Source: an uncultured Planctomycetia bacterium (GTDB lineage: Bacteria; Omnitrophota; Gorgyraeia; Duberdicusellales; 4484-171). Taken from it: a DNA stretch of 57,999 nucleotides. A model generated the notes under the pieces. The model was not told the origin of the DNA and made no database searches. It saw only the letters and a list, made by a program, of their open reading frames with translations. Position 1 is the stretch's first letter; every line of letters begins with the position of its first letter. The stretch lies in NCBI GenBank assembly GCA_964483625.1, contig CAZABB010000009.1:1-57999 (forward strand), read 5' to 3'. Positions 71-48,709 of the stretch are shown here, in pieces. The position numbers and the translations under genes are program-made.

Positions 71-134
71 AAATCCGTTTGGAACATTCGAATTTAGAAT
101 TTGTTTCGAATTTCGATATTCGTGCTTCGGATTT
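71..134. repeat. Degenerate heptamer repeat element, AAATCCG / TTCGGATTT family (mostly the right arm)
   Basis: aaatccg at 71-77, then attcgaatttagaatttgtttcgaatttcgatattcgtgcttcggattt with roughly 7-nt periodicity, directly after the ribH stop. Confidence 0.55.
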
Positions 135-142
135 TAAAAGAA

Positions 143-604
143 CTATAATTGAGTATACAAATCGGCCATTTCAATGGCTGAGAGAGCCGCGGTACGGCCG
201 CGGTTACCCTGCTTGGTCCCGGCCCGTTCCAGAGCCTGCTCGATTGTATCGGCCATAATCGTCCCCATGATAATCGGGACATTATGTCCTAATGAAAGGT
301 TGGCAATACCCTTGGCCAGCTCCGAAGCAACGTATTCAAAATGAGGCGTATCACCGCGGATAACCGCGCCCAGGGTTATAAACGCGTCGAATTTCTTAGA
401 CGTACACCACTTCGCCAGAAGTTGAGGGATTTCAAACGAACCCGGAGTCCAGGCAATCGTGATATCTTTCTCCTCTACCCCCTGTTTGCGCAATTCGTCA
501 ATACATCCTTCAAGGAGTTTGGTCCCGATCAACTCATTAAACCGTGATACGGCAATCGCGATACGTTTCCCTTTTCCCTGATAATTGCCTTTGATCTCTT
601 TCAT
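143..604 (-). CDS. ribH: 6,7-dimethyl-8-ribityllumazine synthase
   Basis: SRFN, PGSFEIP, GAVIRGDTPHFEYV and ERAGTKQGNRG motifs; AAGGAG RBS. Confidence 0.97.
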   Translation of the reverse strand: MKEIKGNYQGKGKRIAIAVSRFNELIGTKLLEGCIDELRKQGVEEKDITIAWTPGSFEIPQLLAKWCTSKKFDAFITLGAVIRGDTPHFEYVASELAKGIANLSLGHNVPIIMGTIMADTIEQALERAGTKQGNRGRTAALSAIEMADLYTQL

Positions 605-623
605 ATTTCCACTCCTTTTTAAT

Positions 624-710
624 GGTCACAAGGACACATAGACACAAGGTCACATGAGAGAATCCACTAAAAAATAAAAACGTGTGTCGTGTGACATGTG
701 ACTATGTGAC
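624..710. repeat. Empty GTCACA-family palindromic tandem-repeat element
   Basis: Left arm ggtcacaaggacacatagacacaaggtcacatg (624-656), right arm cgtgtgtcgtgtgacatgtgactatgtgac (681-710), A-rich spacer. Confidence 0.85.
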
Positions 711-714
711 TTTT

Positions 715-1905
715 TCATAGTAAATGGTCGAGTTTTATCTTCTTTGTATTTAAATAATGCTGATTCTCTTTTTGATGTTCGAACTTCACCGGGATCCGCT
801 CGACGACTTCCAACCCGTATCCCTCCAGACCGACAATTTTCTTGGGGTTATTGGTTAAAAGGCGAATTTTTCTGATACCCAGATCCACAAGAATCTGAGC
901 GCCGATTCCGTAATCACGCAGATCCGAAGCAAACCCGAGATCATGATTTGCCTCGACAGTATCCCGTCCGGATTCCTGCAGACTGTACGCTTTGATCTTA
1001 TTGGCCAGGCCGATACCTCTGCCTTCCTGGCGCATGTACAGTAAAACTCCGTGGTCTTCAGAAATCATACGCAAGGCTTCGTGCAGCTGAACGCCGCAGT
1101 CACAGCGTTTTGACCCCAGAACATCGCCGGTAAAACATTCCGAATGCACGCGAACCAGAACCGGTTTTTGAGAAATATTACCCTTGACCAGAGCAATATG
1201 ATGCGTGGCGTCGGTGCATGATTCATAAAGATGTAAAACAAAATCACCATAGGCCGTCGGTAACTGAACGGTTTCAAGTCGATTGATGAGTTTTTCCTTT
1301 TTACGGCGGTATTCGATGAGCGAGGCGATTGTACATATCTTCAATCCATGTTTTTCAGAGAATTTCATAAGATCGGGAAGCCGAGCCATGGTCCCGTCGT
1401 CGTTGATAATCTCACAGATCACTCCCGCCGGATAAAGCCCGGCCAGGCGAGACAGGTCCACCGCGGCTTCGGTATGGCCGGCCCGAGCCAGTACGCCTCC
1501 TTCTTTTGCTTCTAAAGGAAACAGGTGCCCGGGACGAACCAGATCTTCATGCTGCGAGTGGGAAGAAATGAGCACTTCTACGGTACGGGCCCGGTCAAAG
1601 GGAGAAATTCCGGTCGTGATCCCGCGACGTGCATCAACCGACATGCGCCAGGCGGTCTTAAACGGATCTTCCTGCTGTTGAGGCACATAGTGTAAATCAA
1701 GCCCCAACTGTTTCACTCTCTCCGGCTTAAGCGGAACACAGACCAACCCTCTGGCCTCTTTAATCATGAAATTAATCACATCAGGTGTGGCACGCTCGGC
1801 GGCGATGATCAAATCACCTTCATTCTCACGGGATTCGTCGTCAACGACGATGACCGGCCGGCCTTCTCTGATATCGGCTAAAATGTCTTCAATTGAAGCG
1901 AACAT
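715..1905 (-). CDS. ribBA: Bifunctional DHBP synthase / GTP cyclohydrolase II
   Basis: [32 protein letters not shown] and QEGRGIGL motifs. Confidence 0.97.
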
Positions 1906-1926
1906 ATACTTTCCTTTCAGGAAATC

Positions 1927-2020
1927 GATTACGGTGATTCTACGGGGATTACGGAGATTAAAAGATCACTGTAATCAATGCCGTAGGCATAATCACTGTA
2001 ATCATTCCGCCTTCGCGGAA
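1927..2020. repeat. GATTACGG / AATCACTGT 9-mer palindromic repeat element with embedded mini-hairpins
   Basis: gattacggtgatt..gattacggagatta faces gatcactgtaatc..aatcactgtaatc; hairpins atgcc-GTA-ggcat (1978-1990) and ttccgc..gcggaa (2005-2020). Confidence 0.75.
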
Positions 2021-2027
2021 GTAGATT

Positions 2028-2056
2028 ACCTTAACGCACATCGCCAAAAATGTCAA
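2028..2056 (-). promoter_or_regulatory. Putative sigma70 promoter for ribBA-ribH
   Basis: TTGACA-17 nt-TAAGGT on the minus strand. Confidence 0.55.
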
Positions 2057-2085
2057 GAAATATAAGGTTTTTAGAAAAAACCTTA

Positions 2086-2300
2086 TGATTACAATGATTA
2101 AATAGGGATTACGGCGATTAGGCCTACAGCGTGTATCGCGTCGTGCGTACTGCGTATTGCGTACAGGGTTCAATGTGATATAGAAAGAAAATATGAATAT
2201 GCGTTTTGTTCCCTGGCACGATACTCAACACGCAATACGAACATTATCTGTGACTATCTGTTTATAATCTGTGGCTATCTGTGTAAAGAAATTACGGAGA
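2086..2300. repeat. Cluster of repeat arms: orphan GATTAC arm, TGCGTAT/ACGCAAT palindrome, ATCTGTG arm
   Basis: gattacaatgatta..gattacggcgatta; gtgcgtactgcgtattgcgtacaggg faces ccctggcacgatactcaacacgcaatacg; atctgtg repeated about four times at 2245-2284. Confidence 0.65.
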
Positions 2301-2302
2301 TA

Positions 2303-3199
2303 TTAGAAAATAATACGCAGGCCAGCCTGGACATCAAATTGAGCCGAACGGCGGGTGAGATCGAGAAAAAATTCCTTGTTTTTAGCCATCTCTCGTGAAA
2401 AAGAAACCTTGGGAGCAAGCTTTCTCCCCCGGCGGCTGGTAACGGTCATCTCGATCCGGTTTTTGGCGAAGGTGACTTTAACCGGGAATATCCAGGTAAC
2501 CGGAGCACCCCGGTCGTATCTCAGGGTAAACCCTATTTTTGTCTTTGAGTATATTTTCCACGTCCCGGAAAGAGAAAATCGTTTCCTCTTTATGCGTACT
2601 CCTCTTTTGGTCTCATATCCGAAGCGGGAAATAAAATCGATGCGGTTTTTCTTCGGATCGCAGACGATTTTTTTACGGTCAAGCGTGATCTTTAAAAAGC
2701 TCCTCCCGCTTCGTTCGATCTTATACCCCAGCGAATTGCCGGCAAATGCCCAGCGGCCATTCAGCGTAAAGGTACTCACCCGGCAGCGGTTATCGGCGCG
2801 CCAGGCGTACATCAGGCGGTTGTCACCGGATATGCGCCACTGATTTTTAAACACAAGCGCCTGGTTTTTTCTGTCTTTCTGCAGGCGAAAAGTCAGGCGG
2901 TTATACTTGTCCGCACCCCAGGTCCCGTTCAGATAGATACGTTTTATGTGGCGGTGTGAAGGGGTATGACGCTCGAGCACCTTAAAGCCGATGCGGTTAT
3001 ACTTTGCTTCCTCAATTTTACCCTGAAACGAAATAGATTCACCGAAGGTATCGTTCTGCGTCCGGTTGACCAGAAACACCAGGTTATGCTTCTTATCGAG
3101 CGCCCACTGGCCCTTAATCTTTACCGAAGCCCCTTTGCCTTCGGGATGATAGATGAGGTTATTCGCCTCGACGGTGTAATGACCGCTTTTTTTCTTCAT
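2303..3199 (-). CDS. Hypothetical, very basic beta-rich protein with internal GxW-x2-D-x2-N-x-L-x-F repeats
   Basis: Long ORF (given as 2303-3214); start moved to ATG 3199 because the longer start lies inside a repeat arm; about five GxW repeats. Confidence 0.7.
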   Translation of the reverse strand: MKKKSGHYTVEANNLIYHPEGKGASVKIKGQWALDKKHNLVFLVNRTQNDTFGESISFQGKIEEAKYNRIGFKVLERHTPSHRHIKRIYLNGTWGADKYNRLTFRLQKDRKNQALVFKNQWRISGDNRLMYAWRADNRCRVSTFTLNGRWAFAGNSLGYKIERSGRSFLKITLDRKKIVCDPKKNRIDFISRFGYETKRGVRIKRKRFSLSGTWKIYSKTKIGFTLRYDRGAPVTWIFPVKVTFAKNRIEMTVTSRRGRKLAPKVSFSREMAKNKEFFLDLTRRSAQFDVQAGLRIIF

Positions 3200-3208
3200 A
3201 TTATTAAA

Positions 3209-3242
3209 GGTCACATAGTCACAAGGTCACACGTCACACGTT
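3209..3242. repeat. GTCACA-family arm, downstream end of the HEPN cassette
   Basis: ggtcacatagtcacaaggtcacacgtcacacgtt, 6 nt past the stop of 3249-3863. Confidence 0.85.
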
Positions 3243-3248
3243 AAAAAA

Positions 3249-3863
3249 CTAAATCGATTCCTCTATTTTTTCTTTATCCATTTGTCGCAATATATCCAAT
3301 CCTAACTTCGCAATGTTGAAACACCTTTTTGCATCTTCATCGCCATAAGTGGTTTGTCCGCGATGGAGGATGCGATTTCGTGGCCAAAATAGTTTTTCCT
3401 GAATGGACTTTACTAAATTATTTAGTTCTAAACTGGGGTATCCTTTCTTTATGGTATCGAGAAAGTCAGTATGATTACTCACAAAACATTCAAAACTACT
3501 AGATACCATTGATTGAGACACCTCGTTTATTTTTTTCGTAATATTCCATTTCGTTAGTTTCTTCTCTATATCACCATCCGAGATCTTACTATCGAGGTTT
3601 TTCCATTTTAGATATAATCTCGACAGTTCGCAGTCAAATGCCATGGCGGCATAGACAATAGATAGGTTGTAATCTTCATTTTTACGGTATTCATATCTAC
3701 TTTTTTCTAAAATTTTAAATCCGATAGTAATATCGTTGCTGAAACAATACGATAATCTGTTTCCACAGGGGCAATTTCCGCTTACTTCCGTATCGTGCAA
3801 CCTAAAGAACAGAAAATTCTCTTTTCCACATTTATCACATACAACATATAAAGGAGTCTTCAT
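3249..3863 (-). CDS. Putative HEPN-domain ribonuclease with N-terminal Zn-ribbon-like Cys pairs
   Basis: RNRILH (R-x4-H) motif; N-terminal HEPN-like helix YNLSIVYAAMAFDCEL; CDKC and CPC; visibly more AT-rich than its neighbours. Confidence 0.6.
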   Translation of the reverse strand: MKTPLYVVCDKCGKENFLFFRLHDTEVSGNCPCGNRLSYCFSNDITIGFKILEKSRYEYRKNEDYNLSIVYAAMAFDCELSRLYLKWKNLDSKISDGDIEKKLTKWNITKKINEVSQSMVSSSFECFVSNHTDFLDTIKKGYPSLELNNLVKSIQEKLFWPRNRILHRGQTTYGDEDAKRCFNIAKLGLDILRQMDKEKIEESI

Positions 3864-3929
3864 TTTGCCCGCTGTTTTTCTCCTTTAACTGCTAAATACT
3901 GCTTATAAAATTATTACACTCGCCCGTCT

Positions 3930-4018
3930 AACTTCTCTACGATGTCAGAAAACACACGACTTATAGACTTTCATGCTTCTTTTCACGTGTGTCTATGTGA
4001 CGTGTGTCGTGTGACTTA
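3930..4018. repeat. GTCACA-family arm plus 22-bp block, upstream end of the HEPN cassette
   Basis: Reverse complement of 3978-4018 matches 38731-38771 at 40/41; 3930-3951 matches 38788-38809 at 20/22. Confidence 0.9.
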
Positions 4019-5590: not shown

Positions 5591-5623
5591 TATTTAAAAC
5601 TCCTATCTTCACCTCCGGCGAAC

Positions 5624-5718
5624 CACAGATCATCACTGATTTTCAACAGATGATCACAGACGGTTCTATCTGTGGCCATCTGTGGAATCCCACCCGAAGG
5701 GCTCTGTGATCATCTGTG
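5624..5718. repeat. CACAGAT / ATCTGTG palindromic tandem-repeat element
   Basis: cacagat..cactgat..aacagat..cacaga faces atctgtg..atctgtg..ctctgtg..atctgtg; ccc-GAA-ggg hairpin at 5693-5701. Confidence 0.8.
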
Positions 5719-5720
5719 TA

Positions 5721-6941: not shown

Positions 6942-7007
6942 TGTTTACTCCTTTAATAAGGCTGTCACTTACGGAACGAAGTAATCGTAAGTGACTTAGC
7001 CGCATTA

Positions 7008-7111
7008 AACCCCGCCCTCTAAGCTGTTTTATGAGAGAAGGGTAATCTTAATTACTATCCTATCTTACCAGTCCTCGCCTCTGTTGCTACATTCTGCATA
7101 GGGGGCGGGGT
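7008..7111. mobile_element. MITE-like element of about 104 bp with imperfect terminal inverted repeats (copy 1)
   Basis: accccgccctctaagctgtttt ... ctgcatagggggcggggt; the same ends occur at 49734-49841. Confidence 0.6.
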
Positions 7112-7131
7112 CAAATTCAGCCAAAACAGAC

Positions 7132-9905: not shown

Positions 9906-9913
9906 AGAGATAA

Positions 9914-9942
9914 AGTTTAATATAAATACCTATGATTGGCAA
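9914..9942 (-). promoter_or_regulatory. sigma70 promoter, probably leaderless apgM transcript
   Basis: TTGCCA-17-TAAACT, 8 nt before the ATG, no Shine-Dalgarno. Confidence 0.55.
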
Positions 9943-9959
9943 GGATTTTATAAACGTTA

Positions 9960-10047
9960 GCCCGTTTACCCGTTACCCAGTTCGCCCGTTTATATTCTTT
10001 TAATAAAAATTTAAAAAACGGGTTAAACGCGAGCACGGGAAAACGCG
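9960..10047. repeat. CCCGTT / AACGGG palindromic tandem-repeat element
   Basis: gcccgtttacccgttacccagttcgcccgttt faces aaacgggttaaacgcgagcacgggaaaacgcg across an AT-rich spacer. Confidence 0.75.
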
Positions 10048-10059
10048 TGAACCGATTAT

Positions 10060-10088
10060 TTGCAAATTATATTTGTCTATGTTATAGT
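10060..10088 (+). promoter_or_regulatory. sigma70 promoter with extended -10, near-leaderless trmI
   Basis: TTGCAA-17-TATAGT with TGn, 9 nt before ATG 10098. Confidence 0.6.
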
Positions 10089-10097
10089 AATCCCACT

Positions 10098-10868: not shown

Positions 10869-10894
10869 CCATCCTGATATTGTCCTATAAAAAT

Positions 10895-10928
10895 AAAAAA
10901 GCAGAAGCTTTAAGCTTCTGCTTTTTTT
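10895..10928. terminator. Bidirectional intrinsic terminator
   Basis: aaaaaa-gcagaagctt-t-aagcttctgc-ttttttt between convergent genes. Confidence 0.9.
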
Positions 10929-10953
10929 AAAAACTCTTTTTGTTATTTCTAAC

Positions 10954-11649
10954 CTAACGTTTACGTTTTTTAAATCCTATTCCGAATAACCCAAGCAAAC
11001 CTGTTCCCAGCAGAACCATTGTTGCCGGTTCGGGAGTGTGCGCGGTAAGCGATGCCCGATCGAGACGGATATCGTTTATAGAGCAATGGGCATGAGGTGC
11101 CATTACGATAGTATCCAACTTTCCGTCGTTCAAATACGATAACATCCCTTCATCGCCGAGACTGATATCGAGCATCGCGTATTCCCGTACGGAATATCCC
11201 GGACTCCATACCCACTTATCAAAACACCCCCACCATCTACATACCTGCACCTGCTCCCAGTGACCGGGAACCCAGTATCCCAGATCATATGTCGCTTCGG
11301 TCAATAACTGATCTCCATCGAAAAATCCGGTCCAGATCTGAACCGTCTCTTGAGCGGTATCGCTCGATGAAAATACGAATTCCAAGTCGCCCTTGTAGGA
11401 GTCGATACCCACCGGATATCCGACCGCGTCAGTGGTCGGATACGGACTTAACGTGTTTGAATTCACAAGATCAAAATGCAGCGTGACCGACTGCGCCCCG
11501 AGAATATTGTATTCATACAGATCAATATAATTGTTATCATCCGGAGCACCATAGAACACTTCCACAAAAGGAATCGCCGCCTGGCATACGCCTGAAGTTA
11601 AAAGAAAAACTGCGGCGATTAAACCGATACCCAATACTTTCTTCATCAT
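10954..11649 (-). CDS. PEP-CTERM sorting-signal exported protein
   Basis: N-terminal signal peptide; C-terminal TPEPATMVLLGTGLLGLFGIGFKKRKR. Confidence 0.92.
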   Translation of the reverse strand: MMKKVLGIGLIAAVFLLTSGVCQAAIPFVEVFYGAPDDNNYIDLYEYNILGAQSVTLHFDLVNSNTLSPYPTTDAVGYPVGIDSYKGDLEFVFSSSDTAQETVQIWTGFFDGDQLLTEATYDLGYWVPGHWEQVQVCRWWGCFDKWVWSPGYSVREYAMLDISLGDEGMLSYLNDGKLDTIVMAPHAHCSINDIRLDRASLTAHTPEPATMVLLGTGLLGLFGIGFKKRKR

Positions 11650-11706
11650 CCGTCCCCCTTTTTACATGATAGATACTCGTAGATAAAATAGCCCACCTAT
11701 TCTACA

Positions 11707-11722
11707 AGCATAAACTGTGCCA
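11707..11722 (-). promoter_or_regulatory. sigma54 (-24/-12) promoter of the PEP-CTERM gene
   Basis: TGGCACagtttatGCT (GG-N10-GC) on the minus strand. Confidence 0.75.
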
Positions 11723-11814
11723 GATAAAGAACATATTGATAAATTGTAAATGACTTATTTGCTTAGGGTTAGAAAAAGTAGAAAAACAAAAGGTAGAATC
11801 GGAAGGCGAAAAAG

Positions 11815-11849
11815 TGTAAAATTTTCTGACAAAGTCGGAAAACTTTACA
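11815..11849. promoter_or_regulatory. Palindromic enhancer (bEBP / PrsR-type box)
   Basis: TGTAAAattttctgacaaagtcggaaaacTTTACA, about 95-125 bp upstream of the sigma54 site. Confidence 0.6.
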
Positions 11850-11927
11850 AAATTCACCTCGCAAGCAATACTTCGATGACCATACCGGTGTACGTAAAAG
11901 GCATCCGGCATTCTATAACTGCCCACC

Positions 11928-11956
11928 TTGACGCCCGAGAAAACTTTATCTATAAT
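11928..11956 (+). promoter_or_regulatory. sigma70 promoter, probably leaderless radical SAM transcript
   Basis: TTGACG-17-TATAAT, 8 nt before ATG 11965. Confidence 0.7.
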
Positions 11957-11964
11957 CGTTACCA

Positions 11965-13419
11965 ATGAGAATCGCCCTGGCAATACCTCCGGTATATGGC
12001 GTCAACGTCCCCCCGTTAGGATTGGCATATATTGCCGGTCAATTGTTAAAAGACGGACACAAAGTACAGATATTTTGTCTCAACTCTCGTCTGTATAAAA
12101 CCTGTCCGTCAAAACGTTTCCTCTGGAATATGAACAACAGCGGCCAATGGCAGAAGACCCAACGTATCTACAAGCATTTCGATGTACACACCCTCGCCGA
12201 CCAGTGGGCCCAAAAAATCCTCGCCGTTGATCCGGAAATAATCGGTTTGAGTGTCAACATCTACTCCCGTATTTTCGCAGACGCGGTGGCTGAGGCAATG
12301 AAAAAACGAAAGCCCGGCATCATCGTGATCTTCGGCGGACCGTTATGCAACAATCTTCAAGAAGATGTGTTAAACCCGAACGTGGACCTTTACGTGAGAG
12401 GCGAAGGGGAACAGATAATCAGCAATGTGATAAGACATCTCACCGAGCACGGCTCTCTCTCTTTCCTGACGATAAAGAGCACCGTGATAAACCAGAATGG
12501 TACCTTTAAAGATCTTGGTTGGAATCCTCAACCTCTCGATGTCAATTCCTTACCGTTTCCCGCTTTACATCTTTTTCCCTGGGAGAATTATACCAGCAAA
12601 AAAGAAATCCCAATCCTGTTCAGCCGCGGCTGCAACTACTCTTGCACATATTGTAATGATACAACCACCTGGGGAAGATACCGGATGCGCGATCCCAATA
12701 ATATACTACAAGAGATAATTCTTCACCGCCGTTTATTCGGCAGAAAGAGATTCAAATGCAGCGACCTAATGGTCAACGGCGACAGTAAAAAACTTCTCGA
12801 TCTCGCCCGCAGGATAATCGAGCATAAACTTGATATCGAATGGGGCGGCATGGCCCGGCCCCGCGCCGAACTTTCGCACGATGTATACGAAACATTACGC
12901 AAAGCCGGATGTCGTTATTTTTCCTATGGGGTTGAAAGCGGTTCGGAAAAAGTACTTAACCATATGGGAAAACCGCCGGCAAAAAAAGTCGCCCGGGCAT
13001 TAAAGAAGACCCATGCTGCCGGCATTCGCGTCTATACACTCTGGATGATAGGGTATCCTACCGAATCCTGGTCCGATCTCTGGCACACTATCTATTTTCT
13101 TATCCGTAACCGAAACTCAATCGATGAATTCGTCGGAACAAGTTGCTGTTATATATTTGAAAACTCCTGGCTGGGAAAGCATCAGGAGAAACTTCATATT
13201 CAGCGTTGCCCGCCGCAACAATGGTATATATCGGGTAAAAACACCCCGGGTATCCGCCAATGGCGTAAAAATCTTCTTGTCGCCGCCGGATGTCTTCTGG
13301 GCCTGCCCTCGATACAAGACACCTCTTTCTTCTTACGGATCCTCTTTAAACCGCTCAAATATCTCCCGTTTAGGATCGGCACGTTGATCGCGGATATGAA
13401 ATGGCATTTGCGGGCTTAA
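11965..13419 (+). CDS. B12-binding radical SAM protein (class B methyltransferase-like)
   Basis: PPLGLAYIA, IFGGP, RGEGE, SRGCNYSCTYC (CxxxCxxC), GVESGS and MIGYPTE motifs. Confidence 0.88.
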   Translation: MRIALAIPPVYGVNVPPLGLAYIAGQLLKDGHKVQIFCLNSRLYKTCPSKRFLWNMNNSGQWQKTQRIYKHFDVHTLADQWAQKILAVDPEIIGLSVNIYSRIFADAVAEAMKKRKPGIIVIFGGPLCNNLQEDVLNPNVDLYVRGEGEQIISNVIRHLTEHGSLSFLTIKSTVINQNGTFKDLGWNPQPLDVNSLPFPALHLFPWENYTSKKEIPILFSRGCNYSCTYCNDTTTWGRYRMRDPNNILQEIILHRRLFGRKRFKCSDLMVNGDSKKLLDLARRIIEHKLDIEWGGMARPRAELSHDVYETLRKAGCRYFSYGVESGSEKVLNHMGKPPAKKVARALKKTHAAGIRVYTLWMIGYPTESWSDLWHTIYFLIRNRNSIDEFVGTSCCYIFENSWLGKHQEKLHIQRCPPQQWYISGKNTPGIRQWRKNLLVAAGCLLGLPSIQDTSFFLRILFKPLKYLPFRIGTLIADMKWHLRA

Positions 13420-13506
13420 ATCCCCCCAACCTATGACAAATCCGCATTGTGGAGGAATTATTTCTTATCCCCCGTCACAACGAATTAGCGAATGATCACA
13501 TTCCAA

Positions 13507-13537
13507 TACCATTTCCAATCCCGCATCGGAAATGGCA
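13507..13537. repeat. REP-like palindrome downstream of RAYT
   Basis: taccatttccaatcccgcatcggaaatggca; inverted copy of 14219-14249. Confidence 0.8.
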
Positions 13538-13538
13538 G

Positions 13539-14198
13539 TTAATCCAAGAGTAAGTGCTTGATTTTATCAAGCTCTCGCTGATAGGAGATACGGTCGCGGA
13601 CAAATCCTTCATAGTCCCTCGCATTCATATCAAAATAGTCAGAAAAATCACATATTTTCCTGTCATCGCATATCGCGTTTACATATTCGCCATACGAAGA
13701 ATATGCCCACACAGAAGCGTTATCAATAAGAAAAGCGGTTACCGGGTTTAAATGTATGTAGCGAGTCAGATGAAGGAATTGCTCGTCCGTTTCAACGCAC
13801 ACATTCTTAAACCGTCCTTCCCAGAGAGGTCCTAAACGATTATATTTCACATTGAAGTATTTCGTGTAACTTTTTAATACGAGATTCATATACCTGGATA
13901 TGCCGTCCTCTGTAAACTGCTGAAGTACCAGATGCACATGAGTCGGCATAAGACAATAGGATAACAGTCTTACCAGCTTTGCAGAATTCCTAACGTCTGA
14001 TGCTATCGCGCTTTTTTGATCCGGAGAAAACTTCATAAAAACCGACAACTTGGACGGACTTTTTTCTGCCATATAGAAAAATAGGGCGTTCCTCATTCTC
14101 TCATAATCATTGTCGTTTCTGAAAATGTGGAACTCCGCTATACTTCGTGTAAAAACATGATAGACTTGTTCAGCAACCAAGGGCACTTTTCTGAGCAT
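13539..14198 (-). mobile_element. REP-associated tyrosine transposase (RAYT, IS200-like Y1 HUH)
   Basis: YHVFTR, YCLMPTHVHL (HUH), LWEGRF, YIHLNP and WAYSSY motifs; flanked by inverted palindromes. Confidence 0.85.
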
Positions 14199-14215
14199 CT
14201 CCTACCCTTGCCTCC

Positions 14216-14252
14216 TTATGCCGTTTCCAATGCGGGATTGGAAACGGCATAA
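14216..14252. repeat. Perfect REP-like palindrome upstream of RAYT
   Basis: ttatgccgtttccaat-gcggg-attggaaacggcataa, a 16-bp stem. Confidence 0.85.
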
Positions 14253-14415
14253 ACTAGCGATATTGTCATCCCCAAAAAGAGCCGTTTAATTCAGGTGACT
14301 TCATTGAACGCTTGATCAAAAGACGCATAAGATTCCCACGGGCTAAAAGTCCAGGGATGGTCAGTCTATTATTACACCCCAAACAATGTCGATTTGTGGC
14401 GTAGTCCTAAAAAGC

Positions 14416-14498
14416 AAAAAACCTTCACCGCCTAGGCGAAGGTTTTACTTGTTTTTTACGTGGAGGTTCCCCCTTCGAACACACCACTCAATTGTTAC
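14416..14498 (-). ncRNA. Putative small RNA or leader ending in an intrinsic terminator, with a loosely preQ1-I-like core
   Basis: Promoter TTGACA-17-TAGAGT (14533-14505); GTGG..GTTCG..CCACGTAAAAAACAAG; hairpin aaaaccttcgcc..ggtgaaggtttttt. Confidence 0.35.
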
Positions 14499-14873
14499 TT
14501 GTTCACTCTAACGCTAACACTTATTGTTGTCAAGATGATAATCCCTTTTGTTTACTGTTGAGGAACAATGCCCGGCAACAGTAAAAAAACGGCAATTAAA
14601 ACTAAGCATATCTTTCACTTCTGTAGTAATATAATTCCACAAACCCACATTGCCGGTAAAGTAATTAATCCACTCTCCTGCATAGGCACGACGGTCATAG
14701 AGCAGAAAACCCCCTTCACCACCTGGGCAAAGGGTTTCTCACGAAAGCCTGTACGTAAAATATGGTACAATAACCTTATAGTCATCCACTTTTGGAATGT
14801 TGTCAACTCAAAAATACACTCAGAAATACACAAACCAGTTGCTGCCCCAATTGCAATGCGGGCTTGATAATGG

Positions 14874-16535: not shown

Positions 16536-16728
16536 GGTCACACGTCATACGACACACGTCACACGTAGATTCGAAATGAAGAAAATCCTAATGTCCAAAA
16601 TGGATAACGATGTTAAGTGTTCTCCTCATATCTTTTTCCTCTTTCTTCCTTTCTGCATTTGTTTGGAATTTCGGATTTTTTATTCTCCCTCTCCTACATG
16701 TGACCTTGTGACTTTGTGTCTTTGTGAC
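16536..16728. repeat. Nested element: GTCACA arms outside, AAATCC/GGATTT-type arms inside
   Basis: ggtcacacgtcatacgacacacgtcacacg ... catgtgaccttgtgactttgtgtctttgtgac; inside, ttcgaaat..aaatcc faces tttggaatttcggattt. Confidence 0.8.
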
Positions 16729-16731
16729 TTT

Positions 16732-19522: not shown

Positions 19523-19526
19523 AATG

Positions 19527-19587
19527 AATCGTCGTTCGTCCTGCCCTCTCCCGACCTGTCGGGAGGGCTGGCGGGCGTGAGTCGATA
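19527..19587. repeat. Intergenic GC-rich hairpin inside a TCGTCGT-type arm
   Basis: ctcccgac-ct-gtcgggag within cctgccc..ggcggg, preceded by atcgtcgttcgtc. Confidence 0.45.
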
Positions 19588-19590
19588 GTT

Positions 19591-19987: not shown

Positions 19988-20074
19988 CACAGATAATCAC
20001 GAGATTAGAAACCGCAGATGATCACAGATACAAAATATCTGTGCCCATCTGTTGAAAATCAGTGACAATCTGTG
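19988..20074. repeat. CACAGAT / ATCTGTG palindromic tandem-repeat element
   Basis: cacagat..cgcagat..cacagat faces atctgtg..atctgtt..atcagtg..atctgtg; same family as 5624-5718. Confidence 0.8.
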
Positions 20075-20093
20075 CAAAACGATTCAGCAATCA

Positions 20094-21888: not shown

Positions 21889-22075
21889 TAGCGGTTAGCG
21901 TCGAGCGTGTAGCGGTTAGACGGGGAAACAGATAAAATAAATTATCTCCCTACTCTCTACGTGCTACTCGCTACTCTATAGAATAGAGGCCAACGACGAA
22001 CGACGCGACACACGCCGCAGGCGTTAATCACTGTAATCCTGGTTCTAATCACCGTAATCATTTCCCGAAGGGAAA
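21889..22075. repeat. Composite repeat: TAGCG/CGCTA palindrome, ACGACG arm and AATCACTGT arm with GNA mini-hairpins
   Basis: tagcggttagcgtcgagcgtgtagcg faces ctactctctacgtgctactcgcta; acgcc-GCA-ggcgt (22012-22024); tttccc-GAA-gggaaa (22061-22075). Confidence 0.7.
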
Positions 22076-22077
22076 AA

Positions 22078-22623
22078 ATGAGAGCATTCATTGCTTTACC
22101 CATACCTGATGAGATCAAAAAAGAAATTGCTGATATCCAGCGCCGGCTGAGAATGTGTGCGGCTGAAGCAAAATGGGTTAATCCTGAGAATTGTCATCTT
22201 ACCTTCAAGTTTCTTGGCGATATCGACAACGATCAACTACAACAGATCACCCCGGTACTGGCAACCGCCGGCGAGAAATTCTCTGGTTATGATGTACGGT
22301 TAACCGATTTCGGATTTTTCCCCAACACCCGCCGGCCGCGGGTATTCTTTATAGAAACCGATCATGCCGAACAATTAAAAACCGTTGCCTTCTGGATTGA
22401 AGACAGATTGGAAGCGTTCGGTTTCCCCAAAGAGCGAAAGTTTAAACCCCATATTACGCTCGCCCGGTTTAAAACCACCAAGAACATCAGCCGTCTTTGC
22501 GAAAATTCAGGAACGATCCGGTTAGGGTTGAGCTTCCCCGCCGACAAGATCGTTCTCTATAAAAGCACCCTCACACCTACCGGACCGATCTACGAAGAGA
22601 TCGCTAAAGTAGAACTTCATTAG
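22078..22623 (+). CDS. thpR: RNA 2',3'-cyclic phosphodiesterase (2H phosphoesterase)
   Basis: RAFIA start; two HxT motifs (HLTFKF and PHITLAR); GPIYE. Confidence 0.93.
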   Translation: MRAFIALPIPDEIKKEIADIQRRLRMCAAEAKWVNPENCHLTFKFLGDIDNDQLQQITPVLATAGEKFSGYDVRLTDFGFFPNTRRPRVFFIETDHAEQLKTVAFWIEDRLEAFGFPKERKFKPHITLARFKTTKNISRLCENSGTIRLGLSFPADKIVLYKSTLTPTGPIYEEIAKVELH

Positions 22624-22691
22624 TCTCCGGTCTATAGTCTATGGTCTATAGTTTCTCCCGACCAAATACTAAAGACTAACGACTATCGACT
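22621..22691. repeat. TAGTCTA / TAAAGAC palindromic heptamer element
   Basis: tagtctccggtctatagtctatggtctatagt faces actaaagactaacgactatcgact. Confidence 0.75.
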
Positions 22692-24993: not shown

Positions 24994-25085
24994 GTTTGCC
25001 CGTACTCCCGTTATTCTGCCTGCGGCAGAATTTCCCGTTATCCCGTTTTTATGAACGGGCAAAACGGGCGAACGGGTAAACGGGA
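24994..25085. repeat. CCCGTT / AACGGG palindromic tandem-repeat element with a GNA mini-hairpin
   Basis: cccgta..cccgtt..cccgtt..cccgtt faces aacggg x4; attctgcc/ggcagaat hairpin with a GCA loop on the minus strand (25013-25031). Confidence 0.8.
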
Positions 25086-25104
25086 CAACCTGAATGTTGG
25101 CCAT

Positions 25105-30525: not shown

Positions 30526-30540
30526 CAAATTACCTGATTT

Positions 30541-30637
30541 GATAAAAAACCACCTTCTTTACTCCCACGAGGAAGCATATCCGCTGTCTTCTCCCCCTTT
30601 CCGGAAGCAAAAAGTGGACTTTATCACATCCGATATG
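30541..30637 (-). ncRNA. Putative structured RNA upstream of rpsO
   Basis: Promoter TTGACC-16-TGnTATAAT (30671-30644); long stem GATAAAGTCCACTTTTTGCTTCC / GGGAGTAAAGAAGGTGGTTTTTTATC. Confidence 0.35.
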
Positions 30638-30690
30638 TAGAGAATTATATCACAAAAGGTATGGCGGTCAACTGTTTATATACACTATTA

Positions 30691-32307: not shown

Positions 32308-32374
32308 ACGATTCCTTTTCTCAAGAATATGCTTTTATTATAAGAAATCCCATTTTAAAATCAACACCTTTTAA

Positions 32375-32527
32375 TAGCGATGAGCGGATAGCGTTCAGCG
32401 ATTAAAATAGTCTTTGATCTTTGGTCTCTGGTCGACAGTATATAGTTTCGAATCCCAAAAACTAAAGACCAGATACAAGAGGCTATCGACTCCTTCTTGC
32501 CGCTCGTCGCTATTCGCTCTACGCTAT
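32375..32527. repeat. Nested element: TAGCG/CGCTA arms outside, GTCT/AGAC arms inside
   Basis: tagcgatgagcggatagcgttcagcg [tagtctttgatctttggtctctggtc .. actaaagaccagatac..ctatcgact] cgctcgtcgctattcgctctacgcta. Confidence 0.8.
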
Positions 32528-32533
32528 TTCCTA

Positions 32534-32562
32534 TTTACAATCCGGGGGGAATAACTTAAAAT
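32534..32562 (+). promoter_or_regulatory. sigma70 promoter, leaderless comF-lptFG transcript
   Basis: TTTACA-17-TAAAAT, 7 nt before ATG 32570. Confidence 0.6.
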
Positions 32563-32569
32563 AAGTCCT

Positions 32570-35428: not shown

Positions 35429-35431
35429 TTT

Positions 35432-45226: not shown

Positions 45227-45825
45227 CGATCTATGATCCTTTCGATATCTTGATAGATCTCGGGCAATGACTTCCGGGCCGGTACCACCCTGACCCGATT
45301 CGGATTATTACGGGCAATTGTTTTAAACCCTTTTTTGAGACGCCGGTGGAAATCCAGAGACCGGGCTTCGATACGGTCCTTGGTTTTGATCCTCCGCAAT
45401 CCGCTTTGTATATCGCTGTCGAGGAATAACGTCAGGTCGGGAATATACCCTAAAGAAAAAAGCTTTATGCCTTCAGACGTGATCTGCTTTAGACCCAGCC
45501 CATACCCCTGATAGGCAAGAGTGGAATCAAAAAACCGGTCGCATAATACGACATCATAACGGGTAAGGGCGACGGCGAGTTTCTCTTCGATCAACTGGGT
45601 GCGGGCTGCCAGATAGAGAAGCAATTCGGTATGCGGGCTGACATCATTGCCTTTGCCTAAAAGTATCCGGCGGATCTTCTCACCCGTCTTGGTCGAACCC
45701 GGTTCACGAAAGACCTTAACCCGCAGCTTCTTTTTGCGCAGATATTTCTCAAGATGCTTAAGCACGCTGCTTTTGCCGGAACCTTCCAGACCTTCGATGG
45801 TAATGAATAAGGCTTTTCTTTTCAT
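45190..45825 (-). CDS. tmk: Thymidylate kinase
   Basis: FITIEGLEGSGKS, REPG, CDRF..ST.AYQG and DRIE motifs. Confidence 0.95.
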   Translation of the reverse strand: MKRKALFITIEGLEGSGKSSVLKHLEKYLRKKKLRVKVFREPGSTKTGEKIRRILLGKGNDVSPHTELLLYLAARTQLIEEKLAVALTRYDVVLCDRFFDSTLAYQGYGLGLKQITSEGIKLFSLGYIPDLTLFLDSDIQSGLRRIKTKDRIEARSLDFHRRLKKGFKTIARNNPNRVRVVPARKSLPEIYQDIERIIDRWLNRKRRIRAS

Positions 45826-45835
45826 ATTGTTATAG

Positions 45836-45903
45836 AAGCGGATCCCCGCAGATCTAAACGCGGACTCACGCTGATAATACCCCTGGCAACCTACGCGGTT
45901 GCC
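45836..45903. repeat. CGCAGAT-type repeat arm plus hairpin
   Basis: gcggat..cgcagat..cgcggac..cgctgat; ggcaacc-tacgc-ggttgcc. Confidence 0.45.
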
Positions 45904-45917
45904 AAAAGGTTGAAGCA

Positions 45918-47360
45918 TTATATTCTACGGCGCCAGGTCGTACCGTCCTTGGTATCTTCGAGGATAATCCCCTGCTCAAGGAGTTTTTCGCGTACCCGGT
46001 CGGCTTCTTTAAAATTCTTTTGTTTTTTATACAATACCCGCATCTGGATATGAGCCTCTATCTCTTTTTCTGGCATCTCAAGCGGCTCATCAGTAAAGAA
46101 ATCAAGACAAAATATGCCGGCAATTTCTTGCATAACTTCTAAGGCATGCTTCAGTATGAATTTCTTAAGTTCCCCATCGCTTTCTAATGTCTTATTAAAC
46201 CTGCTTACTAGATCAAACAATACCGCAAGACCCCGAGGCATATTGAAATCATCGTCCATCGCTTCGATAAACTGCTGTCTAAGACCTTCAGCCTCCTTGG
46301 CCCCGCCGCCGGAAACTTCTTTCGTAATATCTACATGCCCATATTGTTGCTGCAGCTTATCGTGAAGAATCTTGATCCGTTCATAGGCCGCTTTGGCTTC
46401 CTCCATCCTCTCGAAAGAAAAATCAATGGAGCTTGCATAATGTGCACCAAGATAAAAAAGTTTCAGGATATCGGCCGGGTATTTTTTCAATACATCTTTC
46501 ACGGTGAAGAAATTGCCCAGCGATTTTGCCATCTTCTGACCGTTAATCGTTAATAACCCGTGGTGGATCCAGTATTTCGCAAACGGTTTACCAGTGAGAG
46601 CTTCGGCTTGAGCGACTTCGTTCTCATGGTGGGGAAAGACCAGATCCAGCCCGCCGCCGTGAATGTCGAGCGTATCTGTCTTTAAATATTTCTGGCTCAT
46701 CACCGAACATTCAATATGCCACCCGGGCCTGCCCCTTCCCCACGGACTCAGCCAGGACGGTTCGTCCTCTTTAACCTCTTTCCAGAGAGCGAAATCAAGA
46801 GGATCTTTTTTACGGGAATCCTTATCGATACGTACCGAATCAATAAGGTCATCGATCTTTTTGCCGGAAAGCTTCCCGTATCCGGTGAGCTTGCGTACGG
46901 AAAAATATACGTTTCCCCCCTCTTGATAGGCAAAGCCCTTAGCGATGAGCTGCTCGATATATGCCTGCATTTCTTTTATGTTCTCGGTCGCGGTAGGCTC
47001 TGAATCGGCCATGGGAAGCTTCATCAATTCTAAGTCTTCATAATAACTGTCGATATACGTAGTACGGACCTTTTCAAACGCATCCTCCAGAGAAATATTT
47101 CGTTCGGCGGTCCATTCCCTGGCGCGGTTAATGATCTTATCATCGACGTCGGTAATATTGCGCACCAGGTTGACCTCATACCCGCGGTATTTCAGGTACC
47201 GGCGGATCACCTCAAACACGTACAGCGACCGGGCATGGCCGATATGACAGTGATCATACACGGTCACCCCGCAGGTATACATATTTACCCCGGGGGCATC
47301 CAGAGGTTTGAAAACCTCTTTTTCTTTGGAAAGTGTATTAAATATTTTTAATTCTGACAT
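45918..47360 (-). CDS. cysS: Cysteine--tRNA ligase
   Basis: CGVTVY..HIGH, DFALWK, GRPGWHIECS and KMAKSLGN motifs. Confidence 0.98.
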   Translation of the reverse strand: MSELKIFNTLSKEKEVFKPLDAPGVNMYTCGVTVYDHCHIGHARSLYVFEVIRRYLKYRGYEVNLVRNITDVDDKIINRAREWTAERNISLEDAFEKVRTTYIDSYYEDLELMKLPMADSEPTATENIKEMQAYIEQLIAKGFAYQEGGNVYFSVRKLTGYGKLSGKKIDDLIDSVRIDKDSRKKDPLDFALWKEVKEDEPSWLSPWGRGRPGWHIECSVMSQKYLKTDTLDIHGGGLDLVFPHHENEVAQAEALTGKPFAKYWIHHGLLTINGQKMAKSLGNFFTVKDVLKKYPADILKLFYLGAHYASSIDFSFERMEEAKAAYERIKILHDKLQQQYGHVDITKEVSGGGAKEAEGLRQQFIEAMDDDFNMPRGLAVLFDLVSRFNKTLESDGELKKFILKHALEVMQEIAGIFCLDFFTDEPLEMPEKEIEAHIQMRVLYKKQKNFKEADRVREKLLEQGIILEDTKDGTTWRRRI

Positions 47361-47875
47361 TTTTTCATCAAAACAGTCGCCATCACCGCCAGAGCATCGA
47401 TCCCGCCTAAGATTTCCAGGTTCTCTTTGGATTTGATCTTGATATTTACATCCTTATTCTTAAGCAGTTTTTTAAGCGACTCGGTCATCTTTTTCTTATG
47501 TGGTGAAAGTCTGGGCCGCTGGGCGATAATGATCACATCGGCATTCAGCAGCCGGTATTTACCTTCGAGCTCCTCCAGGATGCATTTGAGGATTTTTTTA
47601 CTGGAAATACCCTTTGAGCTCTTGCGGCGGGGAGGAAAATGATCCCCGATATCCCCAAGCCCCGCGCCGCCGCATAACGCGTCGCTTACCGCGTGCAAAA
47701 GCACATCCCCGTCGGAAACCGCATCAATACCAAACGGTGCCGGTATGGTTACCCCCGCCAGAATCAGACTCTTTTTGCGGGGATTGAACCGGTGCACGTC
47801 GAATCCGAATCCAACCCGCAACAGATGGTCCGGGTCGAATCTCTCTTTCTTTTTTGAAACCGGTTGTGAGCTCAT
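47348..47875 (-). CDS. ispF: 2-C-methyl-D-erythritol 2,4-cyclodiphosphate synthase
   Basis: GFDVH, SDGDVLLHA and GDIG.HFP motifs. Confidence 0.9.
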   Translation of the reverse strand: MSSQPVSKKKERFDPDHLLRVGFGFDVHRFNPRKKSLILAGVTIPAPFGIDAVSDGDVLLHAVSDALCGGAGLGDIGDHFPPRRKSSKGISSKKILKCILEELEGKYRLLNADVIIIAQRPRLSPHKKKMTESLKKLLKNKDVNIKIKSKENLEILGGIDALAVMATVLMKKCQN

Positions 47876-48540
47876 TGCAACCCCTCTCTCACCAACGCCT
47901 TCGCCACGGCCAGATCGTCAGGATAGGTAATCTTGATATTACAATACTCACCCGCGACGATGCGGACTTTTTGCCCTGAGAGTTCAACCAACTGGGCCTC
48001 ATCATAGACATTTTTCTTCTTAACTTCCCTGAACGCCCGCGTCAACACCTCGCGGGTAAATCCCTGCGGCGTCTGAATAACATAGATGTCTTTTCTCTCG
48101 AGCGAAGCGATAACCGTTTTTCTCTTTACTTTCTTGATCGCCTCTTTCAGTTTGATCCCCGGTATTACCGCCGGATACCGCCGTAAAGCGCCGATCACCT
48201 TTCTTACACATGATGCTGAAACAAACGGACGAGCTCCGTCATGTACCAGAACAGTATCAATTTCGGACCTGAGAGCGCATAGCCCCCGATATACCGAATC
48301 CTGACGTCTCACGCCCCCCTCGACACACATCACCTTATCGTTTTTTATTTTTCTTTTTACCCGGGGCAGGTAAGCTTTCGACACGACAAGAGCGATCTGT
48401 CGTATGTGAGGCATGTTTAAAAAGGCTTCAAGGCTATACCGAAAGAGCTCCTTTTTTTCTATACGTACAAACGCTTTATCTTTTGGGCTCCTTAAGCGTT
48501 TACCTTTACCGGCACAGACAAGAATAACACCTATCTTCAT
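47872..48540 (-). CDS. ispD: 2-C-methyl-D-erythritol 4-phosphate cytidylyltransferase
   Basis: AGKGKR, GG.RQDSV, HDGARP, QTPQ.F and NIKIT motifs. Confidence 0.95.
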   Translation of the reverse strand: MKIGVILVCAGKGKRLRSPKDKAFVRIEKKELFRYSLEAFLNMPHIRQIALVVSKAYLPRVKRKIKNDKVMCVEGGVRRQDSVYRGLCALRSEIDTVLVHDGARPFVSASCVRKVIGALRRYPAVIPGIKLKEAIKKVKRKTVIASLERKDIYVIQTPQGFTREVLTRAFREVKKKNVYDEAQLVELSGQKVRIVAGEYCNIKITYPDDLAVAKALVREGLQ

Positions 48541-48546
48541 ACAACA

Positions 48547-48709
48547 TCACAAGGTCACATGTTTAACTTCAATGTTCAATGCAAATTCAGCAATGAGCAA
48601 TGAAAAATTTGAAGCATGGAGCATATCTCATGTTTTCTGCGTTTTATCACTGCTCAATGATAATTGCCCATTGAGAATTGACAGTTTCTCCATCGTGTAT
48701 CATGTGACC
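48547..48709. repeat. Nested element: short GGTCACATG/CATGTGACC arms outside, CAATG/CATTG heptamer arms inside
   Basis: tcacaaggtcacatg [ttcaatgttcaatg..gcaatgagcaatga / tcactgctcaatgataattgcccattgagaattga] catgtgacc. Confidence 0.7.

Follow-up and report, generated by a model that had tools for sequence, protein, structure and literature searches.

Segmented intergenic palindromes in an Omnitrophota genome: probable ends of small, lineage-wide gene-in-hairpin elements

Introduction

Why should the gaps between the housekeeping genes of an Omnitrophota bacterium be filled with palindromes that share one architecture, a few degenerate tandem units followed by a spacer and the reverse-complement array, without sharing a sequence? 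This question is raised by the window analyzed here, the whole 57,999-nucleotide (nt) stretch of contig C9 (CAZABB010000009.1, positions 1–57999) from a 2.02-Mb, 80-contig genome that is 94% complete (G000). The gene content of the window consists of housekeeping functions, mostly on the minus strand, including ribH, ribBA, cimA, lysC, the gcv operon, lipA, and thpR. The best named matches of its GcvPB protein are metagenome-assembled genomes of Candidatus Omnitrophota (73%, 62%, and 58% identity). Our results suggest that the palindromes are the ends, mostly of gene-less miniature copies, of small selfish elements that occur throughout the lineage and that carry, in their full form, a gene in the loop of a hairpin. 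We assign this reading a probability of roughly 0.6.

Two long-known puzzles form the background. The protein family PF05635 has been known since 1993 as an open reading frame (ORF) inside intervening sequences (IVSs) of ribosomal RNA (rRNA); its structure has been solved and it has no known function. Tandem-heptamer hairpins of the short tandemly repeated repetitive (STRR) type have been known since 1990, and their origin is not known.

For comparison, we used a sister genome of the same genus (G001, 91% complete), a set of 41 genomes consisting of G000 and 40 relatives, and 14 control genomes beside them. Among metagenome contigs, the sole useful fragment of a closer strain was a short contig with about 82% nucleotide identity (L073). 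All gene positions are crude longest-ORF calls throughout the analysis.

Results

The segmented palindromes are real and abundant

Tandem Repeats Finder (TRF) detected arrays with periods of 6–10 in 19 of the 27 window gaps of at least 60 nt, compared with a mean of 3.2 and a maximum of 7 in 40 shuffles. Under a strict k-mer criterion, an array together with its reverse-complement partner was found in 10 of the 27 gaps (shuffles: mean 0.23, maximum 2). Genome-wide, the exact-5-mer ×3 criterion gave 293 array loci versus 37, 57, and 39 in three shuffles, and 163 of the 293 fall in non-ORF DNA, which makes up 9.5% of the genome. At a low TRF threshold, non-ORF arrays outnumber those of shuffled sequence at period 7 (339 versus 24), period 8 (141 versus 18), period 9 (81 versus 19), and period 10 (57 versus 15). 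In total, non-ORF DNA holds 651 arrays of period 6–10 with 349 distinct canonical consensus units. GTCACA/TGTGAC is the hexamer with the strongest intergenic enrichment (407 versus 447 occurrences, 8.9-fold). Furthermore, among 530 arrays, 52.6% have a reverse-complement partner within 150 nt, whereas a control with the cores of other arrays gave 23.6%. The palindromes are real and highly non-random. Searches against Rfam at gathering thresholds returned no match in the window, rRNA included.

The original prediction, made from the letters of the window, had proposed that the arrays would exceed those of shuffled sequence, and this holds by a wide margin both in the window gaps and genome-wide. 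When all window gaps were printed, every one of its families and coordinates was present. Among its AAATCCG sites, the one at 71–134 was confirmed, while the pair at 16570/16665 is weak and was missed by TRF. Its statement that nearly every gap is occupied was too strong, because 8 of the 27 gaps lack an array (6942–7131, 11650–11964, 13420–13538, 14199–14873, 19523–19590, 30529–30690, 49695–49863, and 51226–51342), and the unit lengths, given as 7–9 nt, in fact reach 10. The closeness to stop codons that it had described is borne out: the outermost array lies within 3 nt of a stop codon in 78 of 354 cases (22%), compared with 4.2% for random placement, and the GTCACA position profile agrees. 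Its two examples stand as well, as the thpR TAG (22621–22623) begins an arm and the cimA TAA (4016–4018, minus strand) abuts one.

Two gene families occupy the loops

Two GTCACA-bracketed loops held paralogous ORFs of 116–131 amino acids (aa) that belong to PF05635 (23S_rRNA_IVP, E = 1.3e-35). All seven PF05635 genes of G000 that lie over the Pfam cut-off have an array upstream and its reverse complement downstream, the brackets being GTCACA (twice), TGCGTAT, TAGCG, GGACG, CCCGTT, and a TAGAG-like unit. A k-mer bracket score of at least 4 was reached by six of these seven genes versus 181 of 1653 other ORFs (10.9%). The first windows for this score (100 nt out and 60 in; on the 3' side 10 in and 110 out) scored six of the seven genes, three of them at 4 or more; the low scores came from miscalled ORF ends or from arms beyond the window limits, and the windows were then set, after seeing the data, to 170 nt out and 50 in for all genes. 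Two top-scoring ORFs outside PF05635 are PD-(D/E)XK nucleases of the family PF13366. G000 carries three PF13366 genes, and the arrays on either side of them consist of GATTACRG (period 9) or CACAGATGAT (period 10) units. The two gene families are paired with unit length, PF05635 with the 7–8-nt families and PF13366 with the 9–10-nt families.

This association extends across the lineage. PF05635 is present in 33 of the 41 genomes versus 1 of the 14 controls. In the relatives, 40 of 45 PF05635 loci (29 genomes) score at least 4 and 31 score at least 6, with a median of 8, while the swapped-flank control gave 16.7% and 5.9%, respectively. Arms bracket the PF13366 gene at 7 of 9 loci. The sister genome G001 holds ten PF05635 genes and adds TAGTCT, CAATG, and AAATCCG brackets, and all ten families of the original prediction have a gene-bearing copy in G000 or G001. 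The co-occurrence of families with a small gene family, which it had put forward as a check, was therefore positive, for PF05635 with 7–8-nt units and for PF13366 with 9–10-nt units. The loop genes examined all have protein-coding neighbours on both sides, as in the his operon on contig C73. Within the window, no copy bears a PF05635 or PF13366 gene, and two copies carry other cargo in the loop.

The PF05635 proteins of the two GTCACA-bracketed loops match the PDB entries 2gsc and 2rld, each deposited with five chains; the match of the G000 protein to 2gsc (XCC0516) has an E-value of 1.9e-17. A link to retroelements and Avd was considered and dropped, as G000 has no RVT_1 match and its bAvd Pfam match is below the cut-off. 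Gene-bearing elements of the two families tend to cluster (G000:C39:14084–15630; G009:C17; G002:C2 and C8). On C39, a PF05635 and a PF13366 element flank a single sugar-nucleotidyltransferase-like gene, and the corresponding slot in G001 is a PF05635 element with different arms.

Loop proteins co-vary with the units of their arms

A maximum-likelihood tree (IQ-TREE) of 50 PF05635 proteins has clades that follow the unit of the arms. More specifically, all five GTCACA proteins fall in one clade (support 99/94), the TAGCG pair groups together (100/98), a GACG-type clade unites four proteins from three genomes and two taxonomic families (95/99), and TGCGTAT groups with GCGTAAY (94/82). As judged by eye, the locus of the GACG-type genes differs from genome to genome. 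In a set of 24 labelled proteins, identity is 72.0% for the 21 same-unit pairs and 33.9% for different-unit pairs, and the same-unit value was reached by none of 5000 label permutations. The nearest-neighbour protein belongs to the same unit family in 17 of 19 cases.

The PF05635 copy number also correlates with the excess of arrays per kb of non-ORF DNA (Spearman rho 0.68, p 0.005, 15 genomes), and this excess reaches 3.02 per kb in genomes with at least seven PF05635 genes. Genomes with less than 1500 nt of non-ORF DNA were left out of this correlation (G005, G007, G012, G013, G015, G016, G019, G025, and G038).

Arms have a counted, polar architecture

The arms have a median length of 30 nt. 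Among 121 GTCACA arms, 95 have exactly four units, 25 have three, and one has five. These arms terminate in ...CACA-CGT, and 97 of 120 have an A at position -2, which we read as belonging to the arm. Within a GTCACA element the arms are unlike, with 8-nt units in one and mostly 7-nt units in the other. Their loops start with CGT and finish with ACG, the rest being variable and not conserved among copies. Polarity is fixed in each family: the GTCACA partner lies downstream in 38 cases and upstream in 4 (reverse-complement arrays 32:2), and the same count is 18:0 for CCCGTT and 16:4 for TAGTCT. GTCACA pairs are convergent in 32 cases versus divergent in 3. Elements are also nested in one another, in the window at 32376–32535, 36556–36742, and 48538–48709. 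No target-site duplication was evident in the arm flanks.

Families turn over between related genomes

The GTCACA-array pattern has 165 matches in G000 and 214 in G001, followed by 13, 8, and at most 4 in a handful of other genera and none in most of the 41 genomes; the reversed control pattern has none in any genome. The GTCACA expansion is thus confined to the genus level (0–13 matches in the 39 other relatives), and other genera show the same architecture with different units. The window is syntenic with G001:C10, and 48 of its 53 genes are orthologous. Arrays occur in one or both genomes at 18 orthologous gaps, of which, as assigned by eye, eight hold different families, six the same family, and four an array in one genome only. 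Where the family is conserved, the arms are nearly identical, although the proteins of the two genomes are about 75–85% identical. Cargo varies as well: downstream of cimA, G000 has a gene in the loop where G001 has a bare hairpin. Other GTCACA-bracketed loops in G000 hold a Phd/RelE-like pair (recognized by eye from translations), a radical-SAM gene, a porin-like gene, and others.

This turnover bears on the possibility that the arrays are double-stranded DNA operators for host proteins, serving nucleoid organization, insulation, or a recombination system. The elements are strand-symmetric, the motif arrays count more than their pairing, the arms differ in spacing (8-nt and 7-nt type), and all gap types are occupied, as such sites would allow. 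However, the many unrelated families would need many host proteins, the family at a given slot changes between congeners, GTCACA is expanded only at the genus level, and no proteins other than those of the loop genes follow the families. We regard host operators as extremely improbable.

The elements do not behave as tuned RNA hairpins

One alternative is that the palindromes are RNA structures selected by the host, acting between cistrons or at 3' ends as terminators, mRNA stabilizers, or processing sites, with the loop genes as passengers. The arrays abut stop codons, as described above, and nine elements fold into long stems interrupted every 6–8 bp, with z-scores of -1.8 to -6.8. Orthologous slots are usually filled even if the family differs, which suggests that the families are interchangeable, and small hairpins of the UUCG type occur inside arrays. 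For the comparable STRR sequences, one report suggests a role in stability or translational coupling (PMC2670836).

The pairing of the arms points in the other direction. Native GTCACA arms form duplexes of -33.2 kcal/mol, non-native pairs reach -40.5, and a perfect complement -66; the native partner has a median rank of 25.5 of 32. For TAGTCT (11 pairs), the values are -18.5 for native versus -21.3 for non-native arms. This arm-swap test rests on GTCACA and TAGTCT, as CCCGTT, TAGCG, CACAGAT, GATTACGG, and GGACG gave 0–4 pairs each. Compensatory pairing was rejected for the two families tested, since native arms pair worse than non-native ones. Furthermore, gaps with at least two arrays show no folding advantage of the sense over the antisense strand (38 versus 31, p 0.32), while array-free gaps do have one (155 versus 84), and the orientation of the 8-nt and 7-nt arms is random relative to transcription (10 versus 6). 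Array density is 2.29 per kb in divergent gaps, where no 3' end is expected, and thus similar to that in tandem (3.55) and convergent gaps (2.66).

An identity as intrinsic terminators was set aside on this density and on the ribBA–ribH element, which folds to -25.5 kcal/mol (z -2.69) and lacks a U-tract behind its stem in the sense strand. The elements do not behave as tuned RNA hairpins, and terminating or stabilizing transcripts, the roles raised in the original prediction, is unsupported as their main function. Host-selected RNA structures would also leave the fixed polarity, the four units per arm, and the protein–unit covariation unexplained, and 8 of the 27 window gaps do without an array. 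Taken together, we consider this explanation unlikely.

The same pairing data address an origin as a mutational by-product, in which replication slippage and template switching in quasi-palindromes would build the arrays in a weak-repair lineage with no dedicated protein. Degenerate units, arrays of up to 8–12 copies, the 349 consensus units among 651 arrays, and an architecture common to genera with different units would all fit such a process. Template switching, however, should raise the complementarity of the arms, and native arms are among the worst partners. It would account neither for the unit count of the GTCACA arms and their fixed polarity nor for near-identical arms that recur at many loci and are kept between genomes with about 75% identical proteins, and the link and covariation with PF05635 and PF13366 would again be left unexplained. 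A purely mutational origin is in our view decidedly unlikely.

Most Y1 transposase genes have hairpins or repeats of their own

Intergenic, palindromic, multi-copy elements near stop codons are also typical of repetitive extragenic palindromic (REP) sequences and bacterial interspersed mosaic elements (BIMEs), whose hairpin-forming REP doublets (REPINs) could be moved by REP-associated tyrosine transposases (RAYTs) of the Y1 type. In G000, seven genes exceed the Pfam cut-off for Y1_Tnp, and the window contains one of these (13539–14198). Six of the seven are flanked by their own simple hairpin or repeat, none by tandem-unit arrays, and for the remaining gene (C1, 98072–98770) no flanking hairpin or repeat was seen. 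A RAYT link had been considered for the weak RAYT ORF at 13539–14198 and was rejected because of these separate hairpins. As the array families co-vary with PF05635 and PF13366 instead, we judge a REPIN–RAYT origin highly improbable.

The Y1 gene of the window is over the cut-off of the Pfam Y1_Tnp model and below that of the NCBIfam RAYT model, and it has REP-like hairpins at about 13510–13538 and 14216–14252. It sits in a stretch of about 4 kb (10869–14873) that also encodes a PEP-CTERM protein and a B12 radical-SAM gene and is absent from the syntenic part of G001.

Elements of the window

The elements resolved in the window are listed below, together with the content of the orthologous slot in the sister genome where this was assigned.

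71–134: AAATCCG/TTCGAA-type array of about eight heptamer units at the window edge (TRF 78–134, period 7, 8.4 copies).
625–710: GTCACA element between ribBA and ribH; 8-nt-type arm 625–654, 28-nt loop, 7-nt-type arm 683–710; orthologous element in G001.
1927–2004: GATTACGG element, period 9; arms 1927–1960 and 1965–2004, with 7 and 15 reverse-complement core hits; same family in the orthologous gap of G001.
2085–2283: further arrays in the same 397-nt gap as the preceding element; GATTA-type 2085–2123, TGCGTAT 2138–2164, ATCTGTG (period 10) 2245–2283.
3210–4015: GTCACA element with cargo; arms 3210–3238 and 3988–4015, 749-nt loop with ORF 3249–3863, cimA stop abutting the arm; G001 has a version of about 82 nt overall, with these arms, a short loop, and no ORF.
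5623–5720: CACAGAT element, period 10; nested arm pairs 5623–5640/5668–5685 and 5646–5660/5703–5717; fold z -4.32; TAGTCT element in G001.
9955–10046: CCCGTT element in a divergent gap; arm 9955–9992, AACGGG arm about 10010–10046; CACAGATGAT element in G001.
16550–16731: GTCACA arms around the entire gcvPB–lplA gap, 16550–16566 and 16699–16731; same bracket in L001/G001.
19988–20077: CACAGAT element between gcvT and gcvH; fold z -6.84.
21889–22060: TAGCG/TAGAG element (arms about 21889–21918 and 21946–21976) with a lone CCGTAATC array at 22025–22060; TAGTC-type elements in G001 and L073.
22621–22691: TAGTCT element in a convergent gap; arms 22621–22652 and 22659–22691, the thpR TAG starting the first unit; fold z -3.75.
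24994–25094: CCCGTT element with a small hairpin splitting the 5' arm; 3' arm 25054–25088; fold z -5.50.
32376–32535: nested element in a divergent gap; TAGCG arms 32376–32402/32501–32535 around TAGTCT arms at about 32410–32433/32463–32494; GTCACA element in G001 between the same conserved flanks.
36556–36742: nested element; CCCGT arm about 36556–36585 and AACGGG arm 36723–36742 around GGACG/CGTCC arms at about 36605–36712; TAGTCT element in G001.
38734–39852: GTCACA arms (38734–38761 and about 38837–38870) and TGTGAC arms (39791–39811 and 39832–39852) bracketing the NYN-domain ORF 39122–39757, which has no orthologue in the syntenic stretch of G001.
40973–41100: GTCACA element, the 3' arm broken by a 63-nt secondary element (41016–41078).
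41867–41949: TAGTCT element; fold z -5.46; CACAGATGAT element in G001.
48538–48709: nested element; two outer GTCACA units per side, CAATG arms 48555–48603/48655–48686 inside; intact GTCACA element in G001.

The cargo ORF 3249–3863 (204 aa), which is found in the GTCACA loop of G000 only, has no Pfam or NCBIfam match. A zinc-ribbon-like N-terminus and an R-x4-H motif, both noted by eye in its translation, suggest a HEPN-like nuclease.

The 63-nt secondary element is a conserved palindrome with nine copies in G000, and it is also present in G001. In seven of the nine copies, all oriented alike, a TGTGAC unit and a TGTGTC unit of a GTCACA arm flank the element, which resembles either a small RNA gene or a parasite of second order living on the arrays. 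In a parallel case, Elhai is said to have described in 2008 small secondary elements embedded in STRR heptamer arrays. GTCACA units are likewise separated in places by inserted small G+C hairpins, some with UUCG-type loops, and several loci share the same ones (contigs C35, C74, C12, C20, and C18 of G000; in the window 39812–39830 and 39856–39880).

Some structures of the window lie outside the array families. A non-array hairpin between gcvH and gcvPA (19523–19590) is nearly base-for-base the same in G001, where the neighbouring gaps cannot be aligned, and it may serve regulation or processing. Two copies of a further dispersed element, each about 110 nt long, lie at about 7011–7124 and 49735–49845. 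They have G+C-rich inverted ends (CCCCGCCC...GGGCGGGG type), have the stretch CTCTAAGCTGTTTT in common, and show no relation to the tandem-unit families. A classical terminator is present at 10895–10927.

Discussion

In the proposed reading, a selfish gene-in-hairpin element is built from two inverted arms of about 30 nt, usually with four degenerate 7–10-nt units each, set in fixed polarity around a loop. Full copies carry one small gene in that loop, a PF13366 PD-(D/E)XK nuclease in the case of the 9–10-nt families. Oligomers of the loop protein would bind the repeats of the arms that enclose its gene, each subunit taking up roughly one unit, and would then, possibly through cleavage, help the element to be copied or inserted elsewhere in intergenic DNA, in many cases within an element already present. 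For copies that lack the gene, mobilization would occur in trans, as in REPINs and miniature inverted-repeat transposable elements (MITEs). A more far-reaching version, which we put forward tentatively and hold to be less likely than not, is that PF05635 and PF13366 proteins are the sequence-specific, oligomeric recognition and mobilization proteins of a previously unrecognized class of hairpin-bounded mobile elements, with units as per-subunit sites, paralogues that diversify together with their arms, and gene-less copies that colonize intergenic DNA. The original prediction had envisaged one mechanism with several specificities. The gene-family link and the protein–unit covariation favour this idea, which has to be amended to two gene families, and the recognition itself we infer.

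Several observations weigh against the reading of the palindromes as ends of selfish elements. To our knowledge, no binding or catalysis has been reported for PF05635, and the covariation could arise simply because gene and arms are inherited together, with no recognition involved. We could define neither a target-site duplication nor an excision footprint nor an empty-versus-filled junction. The gene calls are crude, the bracket windows were widened after a narrower version had missed brackets visible by eye, and the bracket test is still failed by one of the seven loop genes of G000, 5 of the 45 PF05635 loci in relatives, and two of the nine PF13366 loci. As the relatives are kin, statistics across genomes overstate the case. 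In the assembled 94% of G000, the TAGTCT, CAATG, and AAATCCG arrays have no loop gene of their own, and G001, at 91% completeness, has CACAGATGAT arrays and no PF13366 match. Genomes without a PF05635 match keep a small array excess (0.43 per kb), and PF05635 copy number does not correlate significantly with paired arrays (rho 0.42, p 0.12). Other genes are bracketed at times, so that the loops may be landing sites for any small mobile gene. Finally, the function of PF13366 is listed as "unknown" in one source (PMC3424549).

Among the closest known systems are the IVSs of 23S rRNA with an S23p/PF05635 ORF, which occur in Leptospira, Coxiella, Xanthomonas, and others. The Coxiella IVS is described as a selfish element with an S23p ORF, whose inverted repeats at either end make a 28-bp stem cut by ribonuclease III (RNase III), the Xanthomonas S23p protein as a homopentamer, and a proposal of 1993 is cited according to which the IVS is mobile and its ORF the mobility component (PMC4990558). 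The PF05635 domain, called "functionally uncharacterized", is also reported from rRNA insertions of bacteria of the candidate phyla radiation (PMC11270868). 23S_rRNA_IVP genes with a conserved GxxRxxxSxxxNxxE motif have further been noted with cas genes on both sides, one cyanobacterial example lying between cmr3 and cmr2 (PMC3936711). Both systems thus place a PF05635 four-helix-bundle ORF in the loop of terminal inverted repeats of about 28–30 nt, and the IVSs, too, have ORF-less forms and are regarded as selfish and possibly mobile (PMC4990558, PMC11270868). The present arms, with their median of 30 nt, interrupted stems, and imperfect pairing, compare well with the IVS stem. In contrast to IVSs, the present elements lie between protein-coding genes and not in rRNA helices, and their arms consist of about four tandem degenerate units, with many co-varying families and hundreds of gene-less copies.

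The fate of such stems may differ as well. The RNase III model TIGR02191 has no match in G000 (94% complete), and a PF14622 match occurs in 3 of the 41 genomes of this Omnitrophota class, some of them incomplete, versus 8 of the 14 controls. As the enzyme was not found in G000, excision by RNase III in the manner of the rRNA IVSs is unlikely here. A missing RNase III may instead let long stems accumulate harmlessly inside operons. Its apparent absence may also bear on rRNA processing.

With the STRRs of cyanobacteria, 7-bp repeats that form hairpins between cistrons and whose function is given as unknown, the elements share tandem 7-nt intergenic units, the capacity to form hairpins, and the presence of several unit families (PMC2670836). 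Period 7 dominates here as well, and inverted partners are present. The host is an Omnitrophota bacterium and not a heterocystous cyanobacterium, and the likeness is one of architecture. REPIN–RAYT systems likewise combine a master gene flanked by cognate inverted repeats with many gene-less intergenic palindromes in lineage-specific families (PMC3116915), whereas the flanked genes here are PF05635 and PF13366 and not a single-copy Y1 transposase, and the arms are tandem-unit arrays and not a single imperfect palindrome. MITEs resemble the elements in their terminal inverted repeats (here arms of fixed polarity), gene-less derivatives, nesting, intergenic location, and lineage-specific bursts, and appear to differ in that no target-site duplication was evident in the arm flanks, the loops are not conserved among copies, and the loop genes encode no recognized transposase. 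Clustered regularly interspaced short palindromic repeats (CRISPR) have repeats of 25–40 nt and unique spacers, in contrast to contiguous 7–10-nt units followed by a reverse-complement array. The likeness to integron attC sites is a general one, namely an imperfect palindrome after ORFs and cargo such as toxin–antitoxin genes in loops.

The original description of the palindromes as unlike known repeats therefore holds for CRISPR and REP–RAYT and is too strong overall, as STRRs, 23S IVSs, and the logic of REPIN–RAYT systems are close analogues. In openly licensed PMC papers and bioRxiv, we found no report of tandem-unit inverted arrays around PF05635 or PF13366 genes, or of such arrays in Omnitrophota, and we know of no link between STRRs and either gene family. 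The elements are best read as akin in kind to rRNA IVSs, STRRs, and REPINs, with the distinction that their arms are segmented and co-vary with a loop gene of PF05635 or PF13366.

For the organism, these elements take up a large share of the intergenic DNA (651 arrays, median length 30 nt). The arrays mark hot spots at which accessory genes, such as toxin–antitoxin, NYN, and HEPN-like genes, enter operons. They probably break assemblies and may trip CRISPR or repeat finders. For the protein families, two puzzles meet here, the role of S23p and the source of segmented intergenic palindromes, and their meeting leads to testable ideas of cognate binding and mobilization in trans. The proposed reading may explain the long-puzzling PF05635 family, and if its more far-reaching version is true, the same logic would explain the rRNA IVSs and possibly the STRR repeats of cyanobacteria.

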